Positions 4,081 through 26,211 of a DNA stretch of 64,000 bases are shown piece after piece (position 1 is the stretch's first letter; every line of letters starts with the position of its first letter). A program made the position numbers and the translations under genes. Origin of the DNA: an uncultured Methanomicrobiaceae archaeon (lineage in GTDB: Archaea > Halobacteriota > Methanomicrobia > Methanomicrobiales > Methanoculleaceae); contig CAWGXH010000004.1 of NCBI GenBank assembly GCA_963826525.1, positions 1,376,001 to 1,440,000 of the forward strand, in the 5' to 3' direction. Below the pieces are notes generated by a model. That model did not search any database. It was given only the letters and a program-made list of their open reading frames with translations, and was not told where the DNA came from.

Positions 4081-5061
4081 TCAAACAGAGTGACGTCTTA
4101 AAGGAACTTTGATCGACGCACCCTGCCGGACTGCCAGCATTCGCTCGATCGCTGTCCGCGCCCGGGCGGCGACGTCTTCCGGGACTGTCACCCGAGGTTC
4201 AAGCCGTTCAAGGGCAGCAAGCACCTCTGCAAGCCCGGTCTTCTTCATGTTGGCGCAGACCGCCCGGCTTGAGAGGGGGAAGAAGATCTTCTCCGGGCAC
4301 TGCTTTTCGAGCTGGTGCAGGAGCCCGACCTCGGTGCCGATGACGAACTCCCGGGCGGTGCTCGTGCAGGCGTGCCGGACCATCCCCGACGTCGAGAAGA
4401 CGTAGTCGGCGAGATCGATCACCTCGGGCCGGCACTCGGGGTGGACGAGCACCTCGGCATCCGGGTGGGAATGGCGGGCGGCCGTCACCTCATCGGCCGT
4501 CATCCGCTCGTGGACGATGCAGTAGCCCTCCCAGGGGAGGATCTCCTTTTTGGTGAACCGGGCGACGTAGCGGGCGAGGTTTCTGTCGGGGAGGAATATC
4601 ACCTGCTCCGCGGCGAGGGACTCGACGACCGCGACGGCGTTTGCGGAGGTGCAGCAGATGTCGCTCTCCGCCTTGACCTCCGCGGAGGTGTTGACGTAGG
4701 CGACGACGGCGGCGGCGGGGAACCGCTCGCACAGCACCCGCACCTCTCCGGCGGTGACCATCGCGGCCATGGGGCAGCAGGCATCCGCGGCGGGCAGGAT
4801 GACCGTCTTCTCCGGCGAGAGGATCGCCGCCGTCTCGGCCATAAAGTCGACGCCGCAGAAGACGATGACGCCGCTATCGAGGGTTGCGGCCGCCCGTGCG
4901 AGTTCGAGCGAGTCCCCGACGAGATCGGCGATATCCTGCACCTCGGGAGCCTGGTAGTTATGCGCGAGAATTGTCGCATCACGCTCGGCCTTGAGCGTGG
5001 CGATCCGCCGGGATATGGATGCCGTGTCTTTGGTTTTGTCCGGAATGGGGATGATAATCAC
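4081..5061 (-). CDS. nadA: Quinolinate synthase A (4Fe-4S)
   Basis: LAHNYQ, FCGVDFMAE, CPMA, YVNTSA, CIVH, HPEC, STSGM motifs. Confidence 0.95.
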   Translation of the reverse strand: MIIIPIPDKTKDTASISRRIATLKAERDATILAHNYQAPEVQDIADLVGDSLELARAAATLDSGVIVFCGVDFMAETAAILSPEKTVILPAADACCPMAAMVTAGEVRVLCERFPAAAVVAYVNTSAEVKAESDICCTSANAVAVVESLAAEQVIFLPDRNLARYVARFTKKEILPWEGYCIVHERMTADEVTAARHSHPDAEVLVHPECRPEVIDLADYVFSTSGMVRHACTSTAREFVIGTEVGLLHQLEKQCPEKIFFPLSSRAVCANMKKTGLAEVLAALERLEPRVTVPEDVAARARTAIERMLAVRQGASIKVPLRRHSV

Positions 5062-5096
5062 AACCTATTTGCGCAGGTAATTGGTACTATTGGGCG

Positions 5097-5112
5097 AATC
5101 ACAATTGTGAAT
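5097..5112. promoter_or_regulatory. Palindromic operator candidate AATCACAATTGTGAAT
   Basis: 15/16 match to the perfect palindrome at 8422-8437; lies between the divergent nadA and 5158 ORF starts. Confidence 0.65.
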
Positions 5113-5157
5113 GTTTCGGCCTGCCTCCCGCCGGCGGTGCCGACCGAAGTGATCCGA

Positions 5158-5535
5158 ATGCCACGAATTCTGAATGCATTGGATCTCGCGATCCTGAAAA
5201 AAGTTGCCCCCGAATCGTCGGGGACGATCTGCACTGGTTCCGGGAGTCCCTACCGCTCGATCCTCCCGCCGCTGGCGAACCGCCACGCGACGGATGCTGG
5301 GGACTTTCTCGAGCGGATGGAGCGGCTCGACGACTCCGATCTCCGCTATCTTGCCGGGCTGATGTGCGACGGGAGCGAGAGCCTCGGGTGTGTCCCGGTT
5401 GAGTATATCGAACTCTTTCTGGCTTTCGTAGCAGATCGGCTCGGGCGGGATACCGCTCTTTCGCTCCTACAGCACCTTGAGGGTGAGGGTGGCTGCATAC
5501 GCTGTTCGTCCCGTCTGCCGTATCGTACGTCCTAG
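5158..5535 (+). CDS. Hypothetical Cys-containing protein
   Basis: ATG at 5158, protein-like 125-aa sequence MPRILNALDLAILKK...SESLGCVP; divergent from nadA. Confidence 0.65.
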   Translation: MPRILNALDLAILKKVAPESSGTICTGSGSPYRSILPPLANRHATDAGDFLERMERLDDSDLRYLAGLMCDGSESLGCVPVEYIELFLAFVADRLGRDTALSLLQHLEGEGGCIRCSSRLPYRTS

Positions 5536-5675
5536 AAAACGGTGAGAATGCATCCATTGCAGGGGAGGCAGTTCGTCCTTGCCCGTCGTCGGGAGGAGAT
5601 TTGCACCGATCCGATATCGATGAGGTATGCATGCTCTCGTCTCTCTCCGCGGTTCAATATGGTACACGACTGTCG

Positions 5676-5691
5676 TTTCGCAATTGTGGAT
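5676..5691. promoter_or_regulatory. Degenerate palindromic operator candidate TTTCGCAATTGTGGAT
   Basis: 13/16 match to ATTCACAATTGTGAAT, about 140 bp upstream of the SAMP-ncsA genes. Confidence 0.4.
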
Positions 5692-5829
5692 TGATCTGCA
5701 GCGATCATCGACGATCCATGCGTGGCTTCCCATTGCAGGTGTATCTGTCGCATCGGGTGGCTTTGCCTGCACTCCGGCTGCTCCTGCAGGAGGTTTATGG
5801 GGTGGTGGGATCAACCCTCTGATACATCC

Positions 5830-6024
5830 ATGCAGATCATCCTCCCGGATAAAAGCGTGCGGACGGTTCCCGCCACCTCCGCTCCGATAGAAGCGATCCT
5901 CCTTGAGCTCGGGATCAACCCGACAACCGTGATCGTCGTGAAGAACGGCAAAGTCGTCCCTGAGGATGTGACGGCGGACGACAGCGACGAGATCCGGATC
6001 CTCCGGGTCTCGCACGGCGGGTGA
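5830..6024 (+). CDS. MoaD/ThiS-family ubiquitin-like sulfur carrier (SAMP2-like)
   Basis: 64 aa beta-grasp pattern (VIVVKNGKVVPED) ending in C-terminal SHGG. Confidence 0.9.
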   Translation: MQIILPDKSVRTVPATSAPIEAILLELGINPTTVIVVKNGKVVPEDVTADDSDEIRILRVSHGG

Positions 6025-6028
6025 GCGT

Positions 6029-6946
6029 ATGTCCACTGGAGAGAACCGGTGCTCCCGCTGCCGCGAATCTGCGGTCATCCGTCTCACCGGCCCGGAGCGG
6101 CGGTTGTGCGTCGGCCACTTCATCGAGGACGTCGAGGCGCGTGTTCTCGCCACCCTCGAACGTGACCGTATGGTTTCGCCGGCCGACCGGATCGCCGTCG
6201 GCCTGAGTGGGGGAAAAGACAGCACCGCCCTGCTCCTGCTGCTCCACCGCCTCCTCCCAACGCCGGAAGCGAGCCTCGTCGCGGTCACCGTCGACGAAGG
6301 CATCGCGGGCTACCGCGAGGAGACGGTCGCGGCCGCGGAAGACCTGACGAACGAGCTCGGCGTCGAGCACCGGATCGTCACGTTCGCCGATCTCTTCGGG
6401 GACGATCTCGACAGGATACTTGCCGGGAGAGAGGCGCAGGCCTGCACCGTCTGCGGCGTGCTGCGCAGGCGGGCGCTCGTCGAGGCGGCGAAGCGGATCG
6501 GTGCGACGAAACTTGCCACCGGCCATAACCTCGACGACGAGGCGCAGTCGGTCCTTATGAACGTGCTCCGCGGGGACCTCCCTCACCTCCTCCACGATAC
6601 CTCGTCCGGGCAACCCGGGCACTTCGTTCCGCGGATAAAACCGCTCAGTGCACTCTCCGAGAAGGAGATCACGACGTACCTGCTCCTCCGGGAGTACTAT
6701 CGCGACCTGCCTGAGTGCCCGTACGCCGGCACCGCGCTTCGATCGGAGGTGCGCTCGATGCTCGCCGCGATGGAGCATCGCCATCCGGGCACGATGGGCC
6801 GCCTCATGCAGTTCCGCGACGAGGTCAGGCGCTCGGCCGGTTCTGCCGACCGGAAAGGGCTGCTTCGCACCTGCCGTATCTGCGGCGAACTTGCGAGCGG
6901 CGAGATCTGCCAGGTCTGCAGGCTGCTCGGACGGGAAGAGCGGTAG
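6029..6946 (+). CDS. ncsA: tRNA 2-thiolation protein NcsA/TtuA (TIGR00269 family)
   Basis: PP-loop SGGKDS, CTVCGVLRR, TGHNLDD, ECPY, terminal Zn-finger CxxC motifs. Confidence 0.85.
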   Translation: MSTGENRCSRCRESAVIRLTGPERRLCVGHFIEDVEARVLATLERDRMVSPADRIAVGLSGGKDSTALLLLLHRLLPTPEASLVAVTVDEGIAGYREETVAAAEDLTNELGVEHRIVTFADLFGDDLDRILAGREAQACTVCGVLRRRALVEAAKRIGATKLATGHNLDDEAQSVLMNVLRGDLPHLLHDTSSGQPGHFVPRIKPLSALSEKEITTYLLLREYYRDLPECPYAGTALRSEVRSMLAAMEHRHPGTMGRLMQFRDEVRRSAGSADRKGLLRTCRICGELASGEICQVCRLLGREER

Positions 6947-7025
6947 AGCCTGCACGCCCGGATCACGAGGCATATCTGCCTGCAGAAAAAGAGGTATAAA
7001 GAGCATTCTTCGAGGGAGATACGTC

Positions 7026-7886
7026 ATGGCACCGGATACGGACGAGCATATCATCGAAGCGATAGGAAAGACCAGGGTCGTCGTCAGGAACGGAAAGGTC
7101 GTGGAGGTCGGCGAGGCAATCATCACCGACTGCCCGCTCGCAAAAAGGTTCGCATGCCCGGTTCGCGAGATCTCGGCAGAAGCGGTCAGGGAGAATATCG
7201 AGCACCGGATTCTGGCGTTCGGGATGTGCACGCCCGACCGGGAGGTCTACGACACCCGGGAGTTCGTCGGTTTCGGGGCGTCCGAGCTGCTCAGTTTCGG
7301 CATGAAGGCCGGTATGTTCGACGCCGCGGTTCTCGCCTGCGACGGCGCCGGCACGGTCGTCGTGACCGACCCTGCTATGTTGCAGGGCATCGGCGGCAGG
7401 ATGTCGGGACTTGTCCGGACGACGCCGTACCCGTCGGTCATGGACCGGATCGAAGAGGGTGGCGGCACCGTCCTCGACCGCGAGAGTGCGGCGATCGACC
7501 AGGTGGCAGGCGTCGCGCTCGCGAAGGCCGAAGGCTACCACAGCGTCGCTGTCACGGTCGCCCTACCTGTTGATGTGGCGGAGATTCGCCGGGTGCACCC
7601 CGATGCCTTTATCGTCGCGGTGCATGTCACCGGCCTTACGCAGGATGAGGCGGCGGTTATCGCCGCGGCCGCCGATCTCGTGACGGCCTGTGCATCGGGG
7701 ACAGTCAGGGAGGTGGCCGGCTCACGGGCGCTCGTCCAAGCCGGAGTCTCGGTGCCGGTCTACGCGATGACCGAACGGGGCAAAGACCTCATCATCGAGA
7801 AGATATGCCGGTCGGACGAGCCGGTGCTGATCAAACCTACTCGTCTCCCGGTCGCCGGAGACCGGCAGCCCGATCCCCTGGTGTGA
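7026..7886 (+). CDS. Methanogenesis marker 8 protein (DUF2099)
   Basis: EHIIEAIGKTRVVVRNGKVVEVGE..CPL, FGMCT, GFGASE, ACDGAGTV, GIGGRMSGL. Confidence 0.85.
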   Translation: MAPDTDEHIIEAIGKTRVVVRNGKVVEVGEAIITDCPLAKRFACPVREISAEAVRENIEHRILAFGMCTPDREVYDTREFVGFGASELLSFGMKAGMFDAAVLACDGAGTVVVTDPAMLQGIGGRMSGLVRTTPYPSVMDRIEEGGGTVLDRESAAIDQVAGVALAKAEGYHSVAVTVALPVDVAEIRRVHPDAFIVAVHVTGLTQDEAAVIAAAADLVTACASGTVREVAGSRALVQAGVSVPVYAMTERGKDLIIEKICRSDEPVLIKPTRLPVAGDRQPDPLV

Positions 7887-8022
7887 AAGTCACTTCGGAC
7901 ATGCCCTGACGCGGAGGCCGTAGCACAGCCCTTTGAGTGTGTGGCGCATATACTCGGTGCACTGCACCCGCTCCGCTCCAGGCGTCTCGACGGCTAGGAG
8001 CGACTCTCTCGCCGCGAGCACG

Positions 8023-8376
8023 TCAGTCAGGCGTCCCCGGGCTTGTACCGGTCTTCCCCTCCTCGTTACACCTGCCGAACCCAGGGTCTTCTTCCCGGAG
8101 CTGTACGCAGATGGCGCAGATCCGTGCGGCGAGGTCGTCCACCCTCCCTTCGCGGAGGTCCCGGGCGAGTCCTGCGATTGATGCCTTCACGTCGTTCTCA
8201 AAGACGATTCGATAGCCTCGCTTTCCGGAGAGGTACTGCGAGATCGCCGACGGCGCCATCCCGAGGAGCCGTGCGGCCTCCTGCTGGGAGACATCGCACC
8301 GGATCAGTTCTTCGGCGATAGCCGCCCGGATTGCGGGCAGCACGTCCCAGACAATAGCCTGACAGGGCAACTTCAT
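8023..8376 (-). CDS. Cys-rich XRE-type HTH transcriptional regulator (COG2522-like)
   Basis: KLPCQ..VLPAIRA, HTH SQQEAARLLGMAPSAISQYLSGKRG, C-terminal CAIC...C. Confidence 0.85.
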   Translation of the reverse strand: MKLPCQAIVWDVLPAIRAAIAEELIRCDVSQQEAARLLGMAPSAISQYLSGKRGYRIVFENDVKASIAGLARDLREGRVDDLAARICAICVQLREEDPGFGRCNEEGKTGTSPGTPD

Positions 8377-8421
8377 GATATCACAACGCTTAAAGGATTG
8401 TGAATAGCACATTTAATGGAA

Positions 8422-8437
8422 ATTCACAATTGTGAAT
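8422..8437. promoter_or_regulatory. Perfect palindromic operator candidate ATTCACAATTGTGAAT
   Basis: Perfect 16-bp inverted repeat in the regulator/iscS divergent spacer, with extra half-sites near 8381, 8397 and 8448. Confidence 0.7.
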
Positions 8438-8496
8438 GGGCAGGAACTCACAAATATCTTTCCCCGTCACCCTGCCCACACCGGAAGTGGACGTTC

Positions 8497-9678
8497 ATGG
8501 CTATGAAACAGGTGTATATGGATCACGCGGCGACCACGCCGACCCACCCGGAGGTCGTCACGGCAATGCTCCCGTACTTCTCGGAGCGGTTCGGGAATCC
8601 CTCCTCGCTCTACAGCAGGGCGCGGGAGGCGCGGAAAGCCGTGGAAGAAGCCCGCGTGAAGGTAGCGACTGTGCTCGGGGCTACCCCCGAGGAGATCTTC
8701 TTCACTTCCGGCGGGACGGAGTCGGACAACTGGGCGATAAAGGGAACTGCCGTCGCCCATCGGAAGAAGGGAAACCATATCATCACCTCGTCGATCGAGC
8801 ACCATGCGGTCATCCATCCCTGCGAATACCTCGAGAAGCAGGGTTTTTCGGTGACCTACCTCCCCGTCGACGAGTACGGCAGGGTCGACCCTGCGGCGGT
8901 CGAGGCCGCCATCACTCCCGGGACGATCCTCATCTCGGTGATGACCGCGAACAACGAGATCGGCACCATCCAGCCGGTCGCCGAGATCGGGAATATCGCC
9001 CGCGAGCATGGCGTCCTCTTCCACACCGATGCCGTGCAGGCGATCGGTGCGATACCTATCGACGTAAATGCACTGAACGTCGATCTCCTCTCGCTCTCCG
9101 CTCACAAGTTCTACGGCCCAAAAGGGATCGGGGCGCTCTACATCAGAAAGGGCACCAGGGCAGAGACGCTCATCCACGGCGGCGGCCAGGAGCGGCGGCG
9201 ACGGGCGGGCACCGAGAATGTTCCCGGGATCGTGGGGCTCGGGAAAGCGATCGAGCGTGCCGCCACCGATCTCGAGGGGCGCACCCGGCGTATCGCCGCG
9301 ATGCGCGACCGCCTGATCGCGGGCATCTTCGATACGATACCGGATACCCGGTTGAACGGCCATCCGACACTGCGGCTGGCGAACAACGTCAACATCGCGT
9401 TCCGCTATGTGGAGGGCGAGTCGATCCTGCTGATGCTCGACCACTTCGGCATCGCCGCCTCGACGGGGAGCGCCTGCACCTCGGCGACCCTCGACCCCTC
9501 GCACGTCCTCCTCGCCTGCGGCCTCCCACCTGAACACGCCCATGGCTCGCTCCGGCTCACCCTCGGGGAGGAGAACTCCGACGAGGATCTCGACTACGTC
9601 CTCGAGGTGCTCCCCGGCGTCATCGAACGGCTCCGGAGCATGTCGCCGCTGACGCCGCCGGCAGAGGGAGGAAGATGA
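8497..9678 (+). CDS. iscS: Cysteine desulfurase
   Basis: [34 protein letters not shown] (PLP Lys), STGSACTS (catalytic Cys). Confidence 0.95.
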
Positions 9679-10106
9679 TGACAGAATACAGCGATACCGT
9701 CATGGACCATTTCATGAACCCCCGGAATATGGGGGAGATCGTGGATGCGGACGGCGTTGGCGAGGTCGGGAACCCGGCCTGCGGCGATATCATGAAGATC
9801 TCCATCCGGGTCGCCGACGACCGGATCATGGACGCGAAGTTCAAGACCTTCGGGTGCGGGGCGGCGATCGCCTCGAGTTCCATGGCTACGGAGATGATCG
9901 TCGGAAAGACGCTTAAAGAGGCCTGGGAGATCACGAACCGGGCGGTCACCGAGGCGCTCGAAGGTCTCCCGCCGCAGAAACTGCACTGCTCGGTGCTTGC
10001 GGAGGAGGGCATCCATGCAGCGATTAACGACTACCGCGTGCGTAGCGGCCTCGCTCTGTGGGAGGAGCGCCCTTCCCGCGCCCACCATTCGGGGGAACCG
10101 GAGTGA
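9675..10106 (+). CDS. iscU: Fe-S cluster scaffold protein
   Basis: [32 protein letters not shown]. Confidence 0.95.
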
Positions 10107-10849
10107 CCGGCATTCTTGACGAGCGCGAGTTCTCGCGGTACGGCAGGCAGATCCTCCTCTTCGGCGAGGAGGGGCAGGAACGGCTGAAGGCAGCGAAAGT
10201 CTTCATAGCCGGTGCCGGCGGGCTTGGCTGCCCGGCCGCCCTCTACCTTGCCGCGGCGGGGATCGGTGAGATCCTGCTTGCGGACTGCGATGTCGTCGAC
10301 CGCACCAACTTAAACCGGCAGGTTCTCCACTGGGAGCGGGACGTCGGCCGCAGGAAGACCGACTCCGCTACGGAAAAACTCCGTGCACTGAATCCGGATA
10401 TCAGGGTGACGGATCTTCCGGTCACCATCGACGAGGCGAATGCGGCGGCGCTCGTCGGCGATGCCGACCTGATCGTCGACGCCATGGACAACTTCGAGAC
10501 CCGCTACCTCTTAAACCGGGTCGCCCTCCGGAAGGACATCCCATTCATCCACGGCGCCATTCGGGGGTTCGATGGTCAGGCGACAACCATTATCCCGGGA
10601 AAGACCGCGTGCCTCCGGTGCATCTTCCCGAGAGCCCCTCCGGCAGAGGTCTTCCCGGTCGTCGGCGTCACGGCCGGGATCATCGGGATGATCCAGGCGA
10701 ACGAGGCGATCAAGTTCCTCCTCGGGATGGACGGCCTGCTCGCCGGCAGGCTCCTCATCTGGAGCGGGGTTACAACAGAGACGGAAACTCTGCAGGTGGA
10801 GCGGCACCCGGGCTGCGAGGATTGCGGCGAGGGATGCATGATCGCGTAA
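10103..10849 (+). CDS. ThiF/MoeB/UbaA-family E1-like adenylyltransferase
   Basis: RYGRQI, GAGGLG, TNLNRQ, CLRC, C-terminal CEDC; GTG start overlaps the iscU stop. Confidence 0.9.
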   Translation: MTGILDEREFSRYGRQILLFGEEGQERLKAAKVFIAGAGGLGCPAALYLAAAGIGEILLADCDVVDRTNLNRQVLHWERDVGRRKTDSATEKLRALNPDIRVTDLPVTIDEANAAALVGDADLIVDAMDNFETRYLLNRVALRKDIPFIHGAIRGFDGQATTIIPGKTACLRCIFPRAPPAEVFPVVGVTAGIIGMIQANEAIKFLLGMDGLLAGRLLIWSGVTTETETLQVERHPGCEDCGEGCMIA

Positions 10850-25729: not shown

Positions 25730-26211
25730 CGCTGCTCTGCTCCGGGCTCTTTTGGCATCTCCGGTTCGAGTGTCCGCTCGAAGACCGGCAGGGAAACCCC
25801 GGTCTTCTCGTCATGGAGCCGTATCGCCTGTATGCCGATGAACTCGGTGAGGATCGCCTCCACCACCAGGTATACCTCGGCCTTGTTCCGAAGACACCCG
25901 GTCAGCGACGTCATGCCTTTCCCGGCAGCCGCATGGAGGTGGATTGAAGGCCCTTCCGACCCCGGGTAGACGGTTCCGAACCCGAGGAGTTCCCACCCGC
26001 CGTAGATATTCTCATGGTGCGGCACCGGTGGAATGACCGGCTCTTTCGGCCCCGTGACGAGCTGCCCTTCCCGGAGTGCACCGAGGATCTGGATAGTCCC
26101 TGTCTGCACGTCCACCGCCCGGACGAAGCGCCGGAGCTCGGTGAGCAGTTCCTCTCCGTCGTCGAACCGGATTGTAAAGACCCTGCCTATACGGCCCTGC
26201 GAGTACTGCAT
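25726..26211 (-). CDS. DUF296/PPC-domain protein
   Basis: [27 protein letters not shown]....GCL. Confidence 0.85.

Follow-up and report, generated by a model that had tools for sequence, protein, structure and literature searches.

A predicted autoregulated repressor with four conserved cysteines and its palindromic operator at cysteine, sulfur, and Fe-S genes of methanogens

Results

A palindrome and an HTH gene among sulfur and Fe-S genes

We analyzed a stretch of 64,000 nucleotides (nt) from an uncultured Methanomicrobiaceae archaeon (contig CAWGXH010000004.1, positions 1,376,001 to 1,440,000 of the forward strand), which we call the window. Near one end, the window holds a small gene with a helix-turn-helix (HTH) domain, which we call the regulator, a 16-bp palindrome beside that gene, and a group of genes for sulfur and iron-sulfur (Fe-S) metabolism. 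A first-pass annotation, made from the letters of the window, had named these genes as IscS, IscU, NadA, NcsA/TtuA, E1, SAMP, methanogenesis marker 8, and an HTH protein, and searches against Pfam and NCBIfam confirm the assignments. The genes are as follows (window positions, strand, and E value unless bits are given).

4081–5061, minus: nadA (quinolinate synthase), the copy in the predicted regulon; Pfam NadA, 2.6e-122
5158–5535, plus: orf5158, a helical, cysteine-bearing protein of about 115 amino acids (aa), divergent from nadA with O2 (see below) in between
5830–6024, plus: SAMP2/ThiS-like gene; Pfam SAMP2, 3.1e-8
6029–6946, plus: ncsA/ttuA-like tRNA thiolase; Pfam PP-loop, 3.2e-14
7026–7886, plus: methanogenesis marker 8; DUF2099, 1.1e-103; TIGR03275, 1.9e-93
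8023–8376, minus: the regulator, 117 aa; Pfam HTH_3, 27.1 bits
8488–9678, plus: iscS; Pfam Aminotran_5, 4.5e-88
9675–10106, plus: iscU; Pfam NifU_N, 1.3e-49
10103–10849, plus: E1/ThiF-type adenylyltransferase; Pfam ThiF, 3.8e-73

Because their stop and start codons overlap, iscS, iscU, and E1 should form one operon, divergent from the regulator. Marker 8 lies codirectionally behind SAMP and ncsA with short gaps, so its context is that of a sulfur-relay network.

The copies of the palindrome and the elements around the first of them are listed next.

O1, 8422–8437: ATTCACAATTGTGAAT, a perfect palindrome (16/16), between the regulator gene and iscS-iscU-E1
O2, 5097–5112: AATCACAATTGTGAAT, 15/16 (one mismatch), between the divergent nadA and orf5158
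O3, 5676–5691: TTTCGCAATTGTGGAT, 13/16 (three mismatches), 139 nt upstream of the SAMP gene
8381–8403: auxiliary inverted half-sites, TCACAA-N11-TTGTGA (8381 on the plus strand, 8398 on the minus strand), directly before the regulator's ATG
8448–8453: a further half-site beside O1, on the side toward iscS
8461–8452, minus: a TATA-like element, AAAGATATTT, which starts about 19–21 nt upstream of O1 in the direction of the regulator

The first-pass annotation had reported the three copies and extra TCACAA/TTGTGA half-sites beside the copy at 8.4 kb, and all of these are present (the half-sites at 8381, 8398, and 8448). O1, O2, and O3 are the only matches in the window with three or fewer mismatches; in 100 shuffles that preserve dinucleotides, the mean was 0.06 matches and none of the shuffles reached three. 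O1 lies 46–61 nt upstream of the ATG of the regulator and 51–66 nt upstream of the ATG of iscS. All three copies are intergenic and adjoin gene starts, and their flanks are unrelated to one another. The hexamer TCACAA (or its complement) is not over-represented in the window as a whole (15 seen versus 14.8 expected), and eight of the 15 fall within the two intergenic stretches of O1 and O2, including one beside O2 at 5058. The auxiliary half-sites at 8381–8403 overlap a conserved element, TTAAAnGTTGTGrTAT, and the right-hand half together with the TTAAA element recurs in most of the orthologous loci described below.

The whole genome (G000; 3,064,097 bases, 59.7% G+C, with the nearest named proteins from Methanoculleus, Methanofollis, and Methanoregula) has just six sites with three or fewer mismatches, O1 to O3 among them. 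Two are on contig C5, at 170662 (within a coding frame) and at 26141. The other, at G000:C4:1074360, belongs to a second locus with a similar layout:

G000:C4:1071731–1074744 (L001 2728–5744): a paralogue of the regulator, divergent from moaD-like, moaE, ycaO, and tfuA genes (these four were named by eye from their translations)

The paralogue has 107 aa, is 69% identical to the regulator, and carries two C-terminal CxxC pairs. Its candidate operator, GTTCGCAATTGTGAAC, lies 46–61 nt upstream of its ATG. This independent recurrence of regulator, palindrome, and sulfur genes within a single genome gave us early and strong encouragement for the idea that the regulator binds this box, and it ties the genes for thioamidation of methyl-coenzyme M reductase (ycaO-tfuA) to the same predicted control.

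We also scored the promoter regions with a weight matrix that was built from the sites of other genomes; as background, the 99th percentile of random windows of 420 bases is 4.1.

Regulator/iscS promoter region (O1): 30.4
nadA/orf5158 promoter region (O2): 24.8
Paralogue/moaD promoter region: 21.2
SAMP promoter region (O3): 12.4

O3 is thus a weak candidate operator, although it scores above the random 99th percentile (12.4 versus 4.1). Over the 12 positions of its core, O3 differs from the paralogue's operator at one and from O1 at two.

The palindrome is conserved upstream of the regulator

We searched 60 related genomes for the regulator and compared the 29 top-ranking loci, which come from 28 genomes besides that of the window. 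In 28 of these 29 loci, all but L030, the palindrome (with up to four mismatches) lies upstream of the regulator. Counted from the ATG, 24 of the 28 copies stand at -57 to -62 and the other four at -33 to -52, and this placement is conserved across genera whose proteins are just 45–70% identical. With few exceptions, the genes transcribed divergently from the regulator are iscS-iscU, moaD(-moaE), or E1-moaD-moaE. The palindrome is also found, at -57, in a locus titled Methanolobus, and in another family (f7), in which we viewed three genomes. G071 has a site between the regulator and a divergent iscS-iscU-ThiF, as well as a double site ahead of SepCysS and O-acetylhomoserine sulfhydrylase. In G131, the site is at -61 and ThiF is divergent, and in G234, a site precedes O-acetylhomoserine sulfhydrylase and an alpha/beta-hydrolase-CBS protein.

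In genus g6, all 13 loci have TTAACAATTGTTAA, a C-to-A variant in which both half-sites are altered alike, so that the dyad symmetry is kept, as expected for the site of a symmetric dimer. We considered whether this variant marks a change of specificity (a recognition helix of the form MTPSAISQY.TG paired with TTAACAATTGTTAA), and ruled it out: the loci represent one clade, and the same genomes have TTCACAATTGTGAA at other targets. Conservation also reaches beyond the 12-mer that we used for searching (see below), with T at -6.5 and a purine at -7.5 in 91 of 108 cases each.

In the direction of the regulator, a purine-purine-TATTT element is found 19–23 nt upstream of the 16-mer in 18 of 30 rows with canonical sites, ten further rows have another T/A-rich run at the TATA position, and two paralogue-type rows have neither (these counts were made by eye, and the 13 rows from g6 are near-duplicates). 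Where the distance from palindrome to ATG shifts (L022 and L031), the spacing between the TATA-like element and the palindrome stays constant. Archaeal TATA boxes are centered about 26 nt before the transcription start. A TATA-like element about 20 nt upstream therefore implies that the palindrome should cover the transcription start of the regulator, and a palindrome over the start makes repression the likely action.

Sites and regulator occur together

We scanned 61 genomes with a degenerate 12-mer, TMRCAATTGYKA, and found 151 sites, as compared to 32 for the reversed control. To divide the genomes, we required an orthologue of the regulator at E ≤ 4e-20 (the next best hit is at 2.7e-10), which splits them into 33 with the regulator and 28 without it. 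All 33 genomes with the orthologue have at least one site. Among the 28 without it, 18 have no site and ten do; nine of these ten have one or two sites each, and of those listed for these nine, most carry a G or a C where the pattern is degenerate. The related genomes in this count are not independent of one another.

The tenth genome, G039, has 14 sites, and we rejected it as a counter-example because all 14 lie inside open reading frames (ORFs) for transposases or transporters: 12 belong to an IS66-family transposase gene that is present in multiple copies, the flanks being the same each time, and two are inside MgtE and CorA. The transposase copies (565 or 593 aa; L060, L062, and L064–L071) carry TTAACAATTGTTAA within the reading frame, so that in a count of pattern matches they pass for regulon sites.

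Most sites are close to the regulator, in clusters that reach about 30 kb from it (for example, 10 of the 11 sites in G010 are within 29 kb). We sampled 301 genomes of the phylum with a profile of the regulator family and found members in 166 of them, and in 56 of 101 genera. Family by family, the regulator is in all 37 genomes of f7 and in none of the 19 genomes of f13.

Overall, then, the first-pass annotation fared well on conservation and distribution: the motif recurs before the regulator's orthologues, its distribution across genomes is non-random and centered on the regulator, and the two occur together. Conservation and co-occurrence give good, if indirect, support to its proposal that the regulator binds the box, regulates itself, and coordinates the cluster, although the last of these needs qualification (see below).

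A predicted regulon of cysteine, sulfur-relay, Fe-S, and cofactor genes

We viewed the context of 50 of the 151 sites, in 11 genomes (G000, G001, G002, G010, G028, G037, G042, G044, G047, G048, and G050; the tally leaves out two of the nine sites in G050 and one of the four in G044). The 50 sites divide as follows.

14 sites: the regulator's own promoter
29 sites: adjoining cysteine, sulfur-relay, Fe-S, or cofactor genes
2 sites: a small winged HTH (wHTH) gene
1 site: a NuoD-like gene
4 sites: unassigned or inside an ORF

Sites adjoin nadA in G000, G010, G028, G037, G042, G047, and G048, and they adjoin SepCysS in G010 (two genes), G037, G042, G044, and G047, where they are mostly paired, 26–32 bp apart. 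Other genes linked to sites are cysK or cysK-cysE (with cysK in G028, G047, and G048), ThiF/E1, pdxS, thiN, thiI, sufB, a SufS-like desulfurase, a second IscS-like desulfurase, and a LipS2/BioB-like radical SAM enzyme of the sulfur-insertion type. A canonical site lies upstream of SAMP2-ncsA in G028. Between site and start codon of the target there can be anything between 0 and about 300 nt. Outside of the tally, there is a double site before SepCysS in G005 and another in G054, beside a family-less protein of 190 aa and an ACT-domain protein. Also outside of it is a distant paralogue of the regulator in G048, with about 43% identity, which has a palindrome of its own and is divergent from fdhD, a sulfur-transfer gene.

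The copies of SepCysS in the regulon have an N-terminal extension of about 60–100 aa, with the motif KTFEALFALED, that is missing from the housekeeping copies without sites; it may be the SepCysSn extension of the literature. Extended copies are at:

L033:14951–16315, minus strand
L034:9424–10932, minus strand
L078:3751–5169, plus strand

In G028, the extension piece is a separate ORF of 116 aa (L035:13102–13452, minus strand) before cysK-cysE. The same genome has, in the operon behind the double operator, a serine-acetyltransferase-like protein with hexapeptide repeats that is fused to FeS_assembly_P (DUF59; L035:11051–12031, minus strand).

The palindrome also precedes a small wHTH gene (HTH_24, 68–84 aa) in two genera (L033:8526–8780, plus strand, in G010, and L038:4252–4458, plus strand, in G050), which suggests a regulatory cascade. 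The window's genome has a homologue that is 49% identical (G000:C4:674487–674681, minus strand), and this gene has no site among the matrix matches that score above 12.

In the window, orf5158 is a real conserved gene and a member of the predicted regulon. It matches no family in Pfam or NCBIfam, and Foldseek returned no neighbors (best E, 0.8); all 84 homologues that we found are named "hypothetical." It is 67% identical to the ORF that is divergent from nadA in G010, and family copies are also found at L034:1466–1813 (minus strand) and L035:9659–10093 (minus strand). In the alignment, C78 and C113 are invariant and C25 is nearly so.

The regulator is an XRE-type HTH protein with four conserved cysteines

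The regulator matches Pfam HTH_3 (PF01381) over residues 21–53 (27.1 bits against a cut-off of 23, E = 4.2e-6) and has no match among NCBIfam models. It is an XRE-type HTH protein with four conserved cysteines, C5, C87, C90, and C103: in 33 aligned sequences, the last three are invariant, and C5 is kept in all but one. We take the ATG at 8376 as the start codon because conservation begins at M1 of MKLPCQ. The recognition helix reads APSA(I/V)SQY.SGKRGY across the alignment. The common pattern in the family is one CxxC and two isolated cysteines, the first of these at the extreme N-terminus, while the paralogue and several orthologues have two C-terminal CxxC pairs that resemble a zinc ribbon. 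We found 734 homologues, and their names in the source are only generic.

By sequence, no close relative is among the solved structures of the PDB (the best hit is HigA, E = 0.45). An AlphaFold (AF2) model, made without cofactor, has five helices and a mean predicted local distance difference test (pLDDT) score of 74; both termini, which bear C5 and C103, are below 50. Disordered termini would fit a site that takes shape only once a metal or a cluster is bound, but they prove nothing. With the model as query, the best Foldseek row is again HigA (E = 0.68, TM score 0.34), and the best VIA-align Z score, 5.3, is to unrelated helical proteins and is below the level that is meaningful for helical folds.

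How the regulator might act

The best-supported reading of these comparisons is that the regulator, which is widespread in methanogens and as yet has no name, is a sulfur/Fe-S-linked autoregulated repressor built on a fold unrelated to those of known systems of this kind. As in other autoregulated repressors that bind palindromes, a candidate operator lies in its own promoter, and motif and regulator co-occur. On balance, we think it probable that a dimeric XRE-type repressor acts on the palindrome, regulates its own gene, and controls genes for cysteine, sulfur, and Fe-S metabolism. The parts of this proposal differ in strength. Binding of the palindrome by the regulator is very likely, and autoregulation is likely; that the regulator represses rather than activates is reasonably probable; and that its cysteines sense Fe-S clusters or thiols is a suggestion that we make tentatively.

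The mechanism would run as follows. A dimer of the 117-aa protein would recognize RTTMACAATTGTKAAY in the control region that the regulator shares with iscS-iscU-E1. When bound, it would keep RNA polymerase off the promoter, and so repress both its own gene and the divergent operon. The other copies would bring nadA/orf5158 and, more weakly, SAMP-ncsA-marker 8 under the same control; the paralogue would control moaD-moaE-ycaO-tfuA likewise; and in related genomes, the same pair of protein and operator would control a larger set of cysteine and sulfur genes. C5, C87, C90, and C103 are the probable sensor, which would most likely hold an Fe-S cluster or react with a persulfide or thiol, so that sufficiency of sulfur or of Fe-S clusters would keep the repressor on the DNA.

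Several observations weigh against this proposal or narrow it. First, a symmetrized A+T profile of 54 sites shows no sharp TATA peak, so the promoter geometry is supported only at the regulator's own promoter. Second, eight loci with the same recognition helix (L047–L053 and L055, titled Methanomethylovorans or Methanosarcinales/Methanosarcinaceae) lack the canonical palindrome, and so do the upstream regions of L030 and L058. Third, the predicted regulon of the window's genome is just three or four promoters: its SepCysS, pdxS, sufB, thiI, second nadA, and other iscS and iscU genes have no site (best score 2.1, versus the background of 4.1). Fourth, in the nearest relative (G001, with proteins 80–90% identical), only the site between regulator and iscS is kept; orf5158 is deleted except for its first codons, the stretch with O3 is deleted, and O2 has decayed. 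Fifth, all five of the regulator-less genomes of g6 that we tested are missing the regulator-linked iscU and nadA, and have only paralogues that are about 60% and 47% identical. Gain and loss thus affect the regulator, its sites, and its targets as a set, which makes the co-occurrence partly trivial. Finally, the four cysteines could simply hold zinc.

The eight loci share a different element near the ATG, CCACAAyGATTTAATCC followed by TACAAATTrTA, which may be a rearranged operator at the promoter of a leaderless transcript.

The comparison with G001 also narrows the idea that the regulator coordinates the cluster: O2 and O3 are not kept there, and nadA and SAMP are directly divergent. Given the deletion of orf5158 along with the decay of O2, orf5158 may be no less a target of O2 than nadA is.

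Under the zinc alternative, the cysteines would bind structural zinc, and the signal would be a small molecule (cysteine, O-acetylserine, or sulfide) or a partner protein, in the style of CysK and CymR, with CysK or the co-regulated orf5158 protein as candidate partners. The two C-terminal CxxC pairs of the paralogue and of several orthologues favor structural zinc, and a role for a partner gains from the membership of cysK in the regulons of G028, G047, and G048 and from the conserved cysteines of orf5158. But most family members have the single CxxC with two lone cysteines, one of them far toward the N-terminus, and such a set is commoner among Fe-S ligands than among zinc ribbons; and in G001, the regulator and its site persist although orf5158 was lost. 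We consider this alternative less likely than not.

The regulator might instead activate sulfur genes, or play a dual role in which it represses its own gene and recruits TBP/TFB at targets whose sites lie upstream of the promoter. The wide range of distances between sites and start codons and the lack of a fixed TATA distance in the A+T profile fit with activation. There is also an alternative TATA-like element, AAATATCTTT, at 8452–8461, downstream of the palindrome toward iscS; if this element serves iscS, then the palindrome is in the position of an activator site. These points are countered by the TATA-like element 19–23 nt upstream of the site in most of the regulator's own promoters, since a TATA box just upstream of the site is the usual geometry of archaeal repressors, and by the paired sites near the start of SepCysS, whose spacing of 26–32 bp looks like cooperative occlusion. 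Activation therefore seems rather improbable to us.

It is very improbable that the palindrome is the site of another transcription factor and that the HTH gene is a mere neighbor. The small wHTH protein is a candidate, as its gene belongs to the predicted regulons of G010 and G050 and has the homologue in the window's genome, but that homologue lacks a site among the matrix matches above 12, the palindrome is fixed before the regulator (28 of 29 loci) and before its paralogues, including the one in G048 with about 43% identity, and every genome with the regulator has sites. An origin of the copies by chance, or from a repeat or mobile element of which they would be relics, can practically be dismissed: a mobile element does carry the 12-mer 12 times in G039, but the copies in the window are intergenic at gene starts and share no flanks or repeat unit, and the site is kept in the same place across genera with protein identities of 45–70%.

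The regulator and its targets may form an accessory module

The regulator and its predicted targets together look like an accessory module. In the window's genome, the iscS-iscU and nadA with sites exist beside paralogues without sites on contigs C3 and C4 (iscU, 64% identical; the second nadA, on C3, 47% identical). Within genus g6, 13 of 30 genomes have the module. The regulator-less g6 genomes do have SepCysS (65–68% identity), and their iscU, SepCysS, and nadA loci have no sites (best score 1.6). Methanolobus-named homologues of the regulator (P0009, P0019, and P0022) are 74–78% identical to the one in the window, while some homologues within the window's own order (G044 and G054) are just 45–50% identical to it; this pattern of identities hints at transfer of the module between orders.

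From the patchy presence in g6, the lack of all but the paralogues in the five regulator-less genomes, and the Methanolobus identities, one can sketch a more speculative proposal, which we put forward as a possibility and not as an expectation: regulator, operator, and targets may be a self-contained, horizontally mobile module of methanogens for a cysteine-based sulfur economy, switched by a new kind of four-cysteine XRE-type sensor of Fe-S clusters or persulfide. The module would carry its own extra copies of IscS-IscU, NadA, N-terminally extended SepCysS, E1/SAMP, and MoaDE, and the sensor would switch these on when the sulfide-based route is insufficient. If so, orf5158 and marker 8 would be parts of the sulfur network.

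Discussion

Methanogens rely on Fe-S proteins, on tRNA-dependent synthesis of cysteine, on SAMP/E1 sulfur relay, and on thioamidation of methyl-coenzyme M reductase. In the literature that we searched, we found no regulator of the supply of cysteine, sulfur, or Fe-S clusters in methanogens, and no paper on this regulator or its palindrome, although supplementary Fig. S1 of PMC7585200 may draw an HTH gene beside iscSU2. The relevant passages of PMC7585200 and of PMC5112694, which describes MA2716 as quinolinate synthase, do not mention a regulator or an operator. AmzR (bioRxiv 10.1101/2025.05.05.652248) was considered and set aside since it is of a different family without an HTH.

Judging by the literature we found, this would be the first regulator proposed for sulfur and Fe-S metabolism in methanogens. 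The analysis yields a specific candidate protein, the exact sequence of its predicted operator, and target promoters that are listed for many species, which makes the question of how methanogens regulate sulfur and Fe-S metabolism directly testable. It would also tie orf5158, marker 8, and ycaO-tfuA to the sulfur network. And if the regulator works as proposed, it would represent convergence with the bacterial regulators IscR, CymR, and SufR from an unrelated fold.

IscR is a small autoregulated repressor of the Rrf2 family, encoded beside iscS-iscU, that uses cysteine ligands to couple the Fe-S assembly genes to cluster status. The regulator resembles IscR in the position of its gene, its predicted autoregulatory site, and its conserved cysteines. 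It differs in its domain: HTH_3 takes the place of Rrf2, and Rrf2 (PF02082) is not among the six Pfam families that match the regulator at E ≤ 0.01. (Elsewhere in the window's genome, one protein matches Rrf2 marginally, at 31.4 bits against a cut-off of 30, so it cannot be claimed that methanogens lack Rrf2 regulators.) IscR's ligands are three close cysteines plus a histidine near residues 92–107; here the spacing is C5...C87-x2-C90-x12-C103, and the 33 aligned sequences have no invariant histidine. The regulator gene is also divergent from the isc operon instead of being its first gene, the cluster in the regulator is putative, and the regulon reaches into cysteine biosynthesis and sulfur carriers. 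The first-pass annotation had proposed a non-Rrf2 analog of IscR. The non-Rrf2 part is borne out, while the analogy is too narrow, since the predicted regulon adds SepCysS, cysK-cysE, O-acetylhomoserine sulfhydrylase, pdxS, thiI/thiN, and moaDE.

With this wider scope, the regulon resembles a cysteine/sulfur regulon, like that of CymR, as much as an Fe-S one. CymR of Bacillus subtilis is the Rrf2-family master regulator of cysteine metabolism; it lacks a cluster and works only together with a partner, CysK. The likeness is in the regulon, which is centered here as well on cysteine synthesis and sulfur use (cysK, cysE, SepCysS, and O-acetylhomoserine sulfhydrylase), and the difference is in the protein family, which is unrelated.

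SufR, from cyanobacteria and actinobacteria, is a repressor that senses Fe-S clusters with cysteine ligands and is divergent from its Fe-S assembly operon, as is the regulator described here. At about 200 aa or more, SufR combines a DeoR-type wHTH with four spaced cysteines behind it, which is unlike the regulator (117 aa with HTH_3) in DNA-binding domain, size, and cysteine pattern. The targets differ as well: suf for SufR, and isc plus sulfur-relay genes here.

Among archaeal proteins, SurR of the Thermococcales is a CxxC regulator that responds to the availability of sulfur. It has two ArsR-type winged helices with an N-terminal CxxC, recognizes GTTn3AAC, and controls genes for hydrogenase and sulfur reduction. 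The Pfam matches of the regulator include none of the ArsR/HTH_5 type, and its predicted operator is a 16-bp palindrome with a CAATTG core.

The regulator can also be set beside ordinary repressors of the XRE/Cro type (such as phage Cro/CI, SinR, and HigA antitoxins), with which it shares the HTH_3 domain, the small size, a palindromic operator, and the predicted dimer and autoregulation. Unlike these, and with no close solved structure, it adds an N-terminal PCQ and a C-terminal part of two helices with the cysteine set, and it is linked to a metabolic regulon that is conserved over at least two orders of methanogens.

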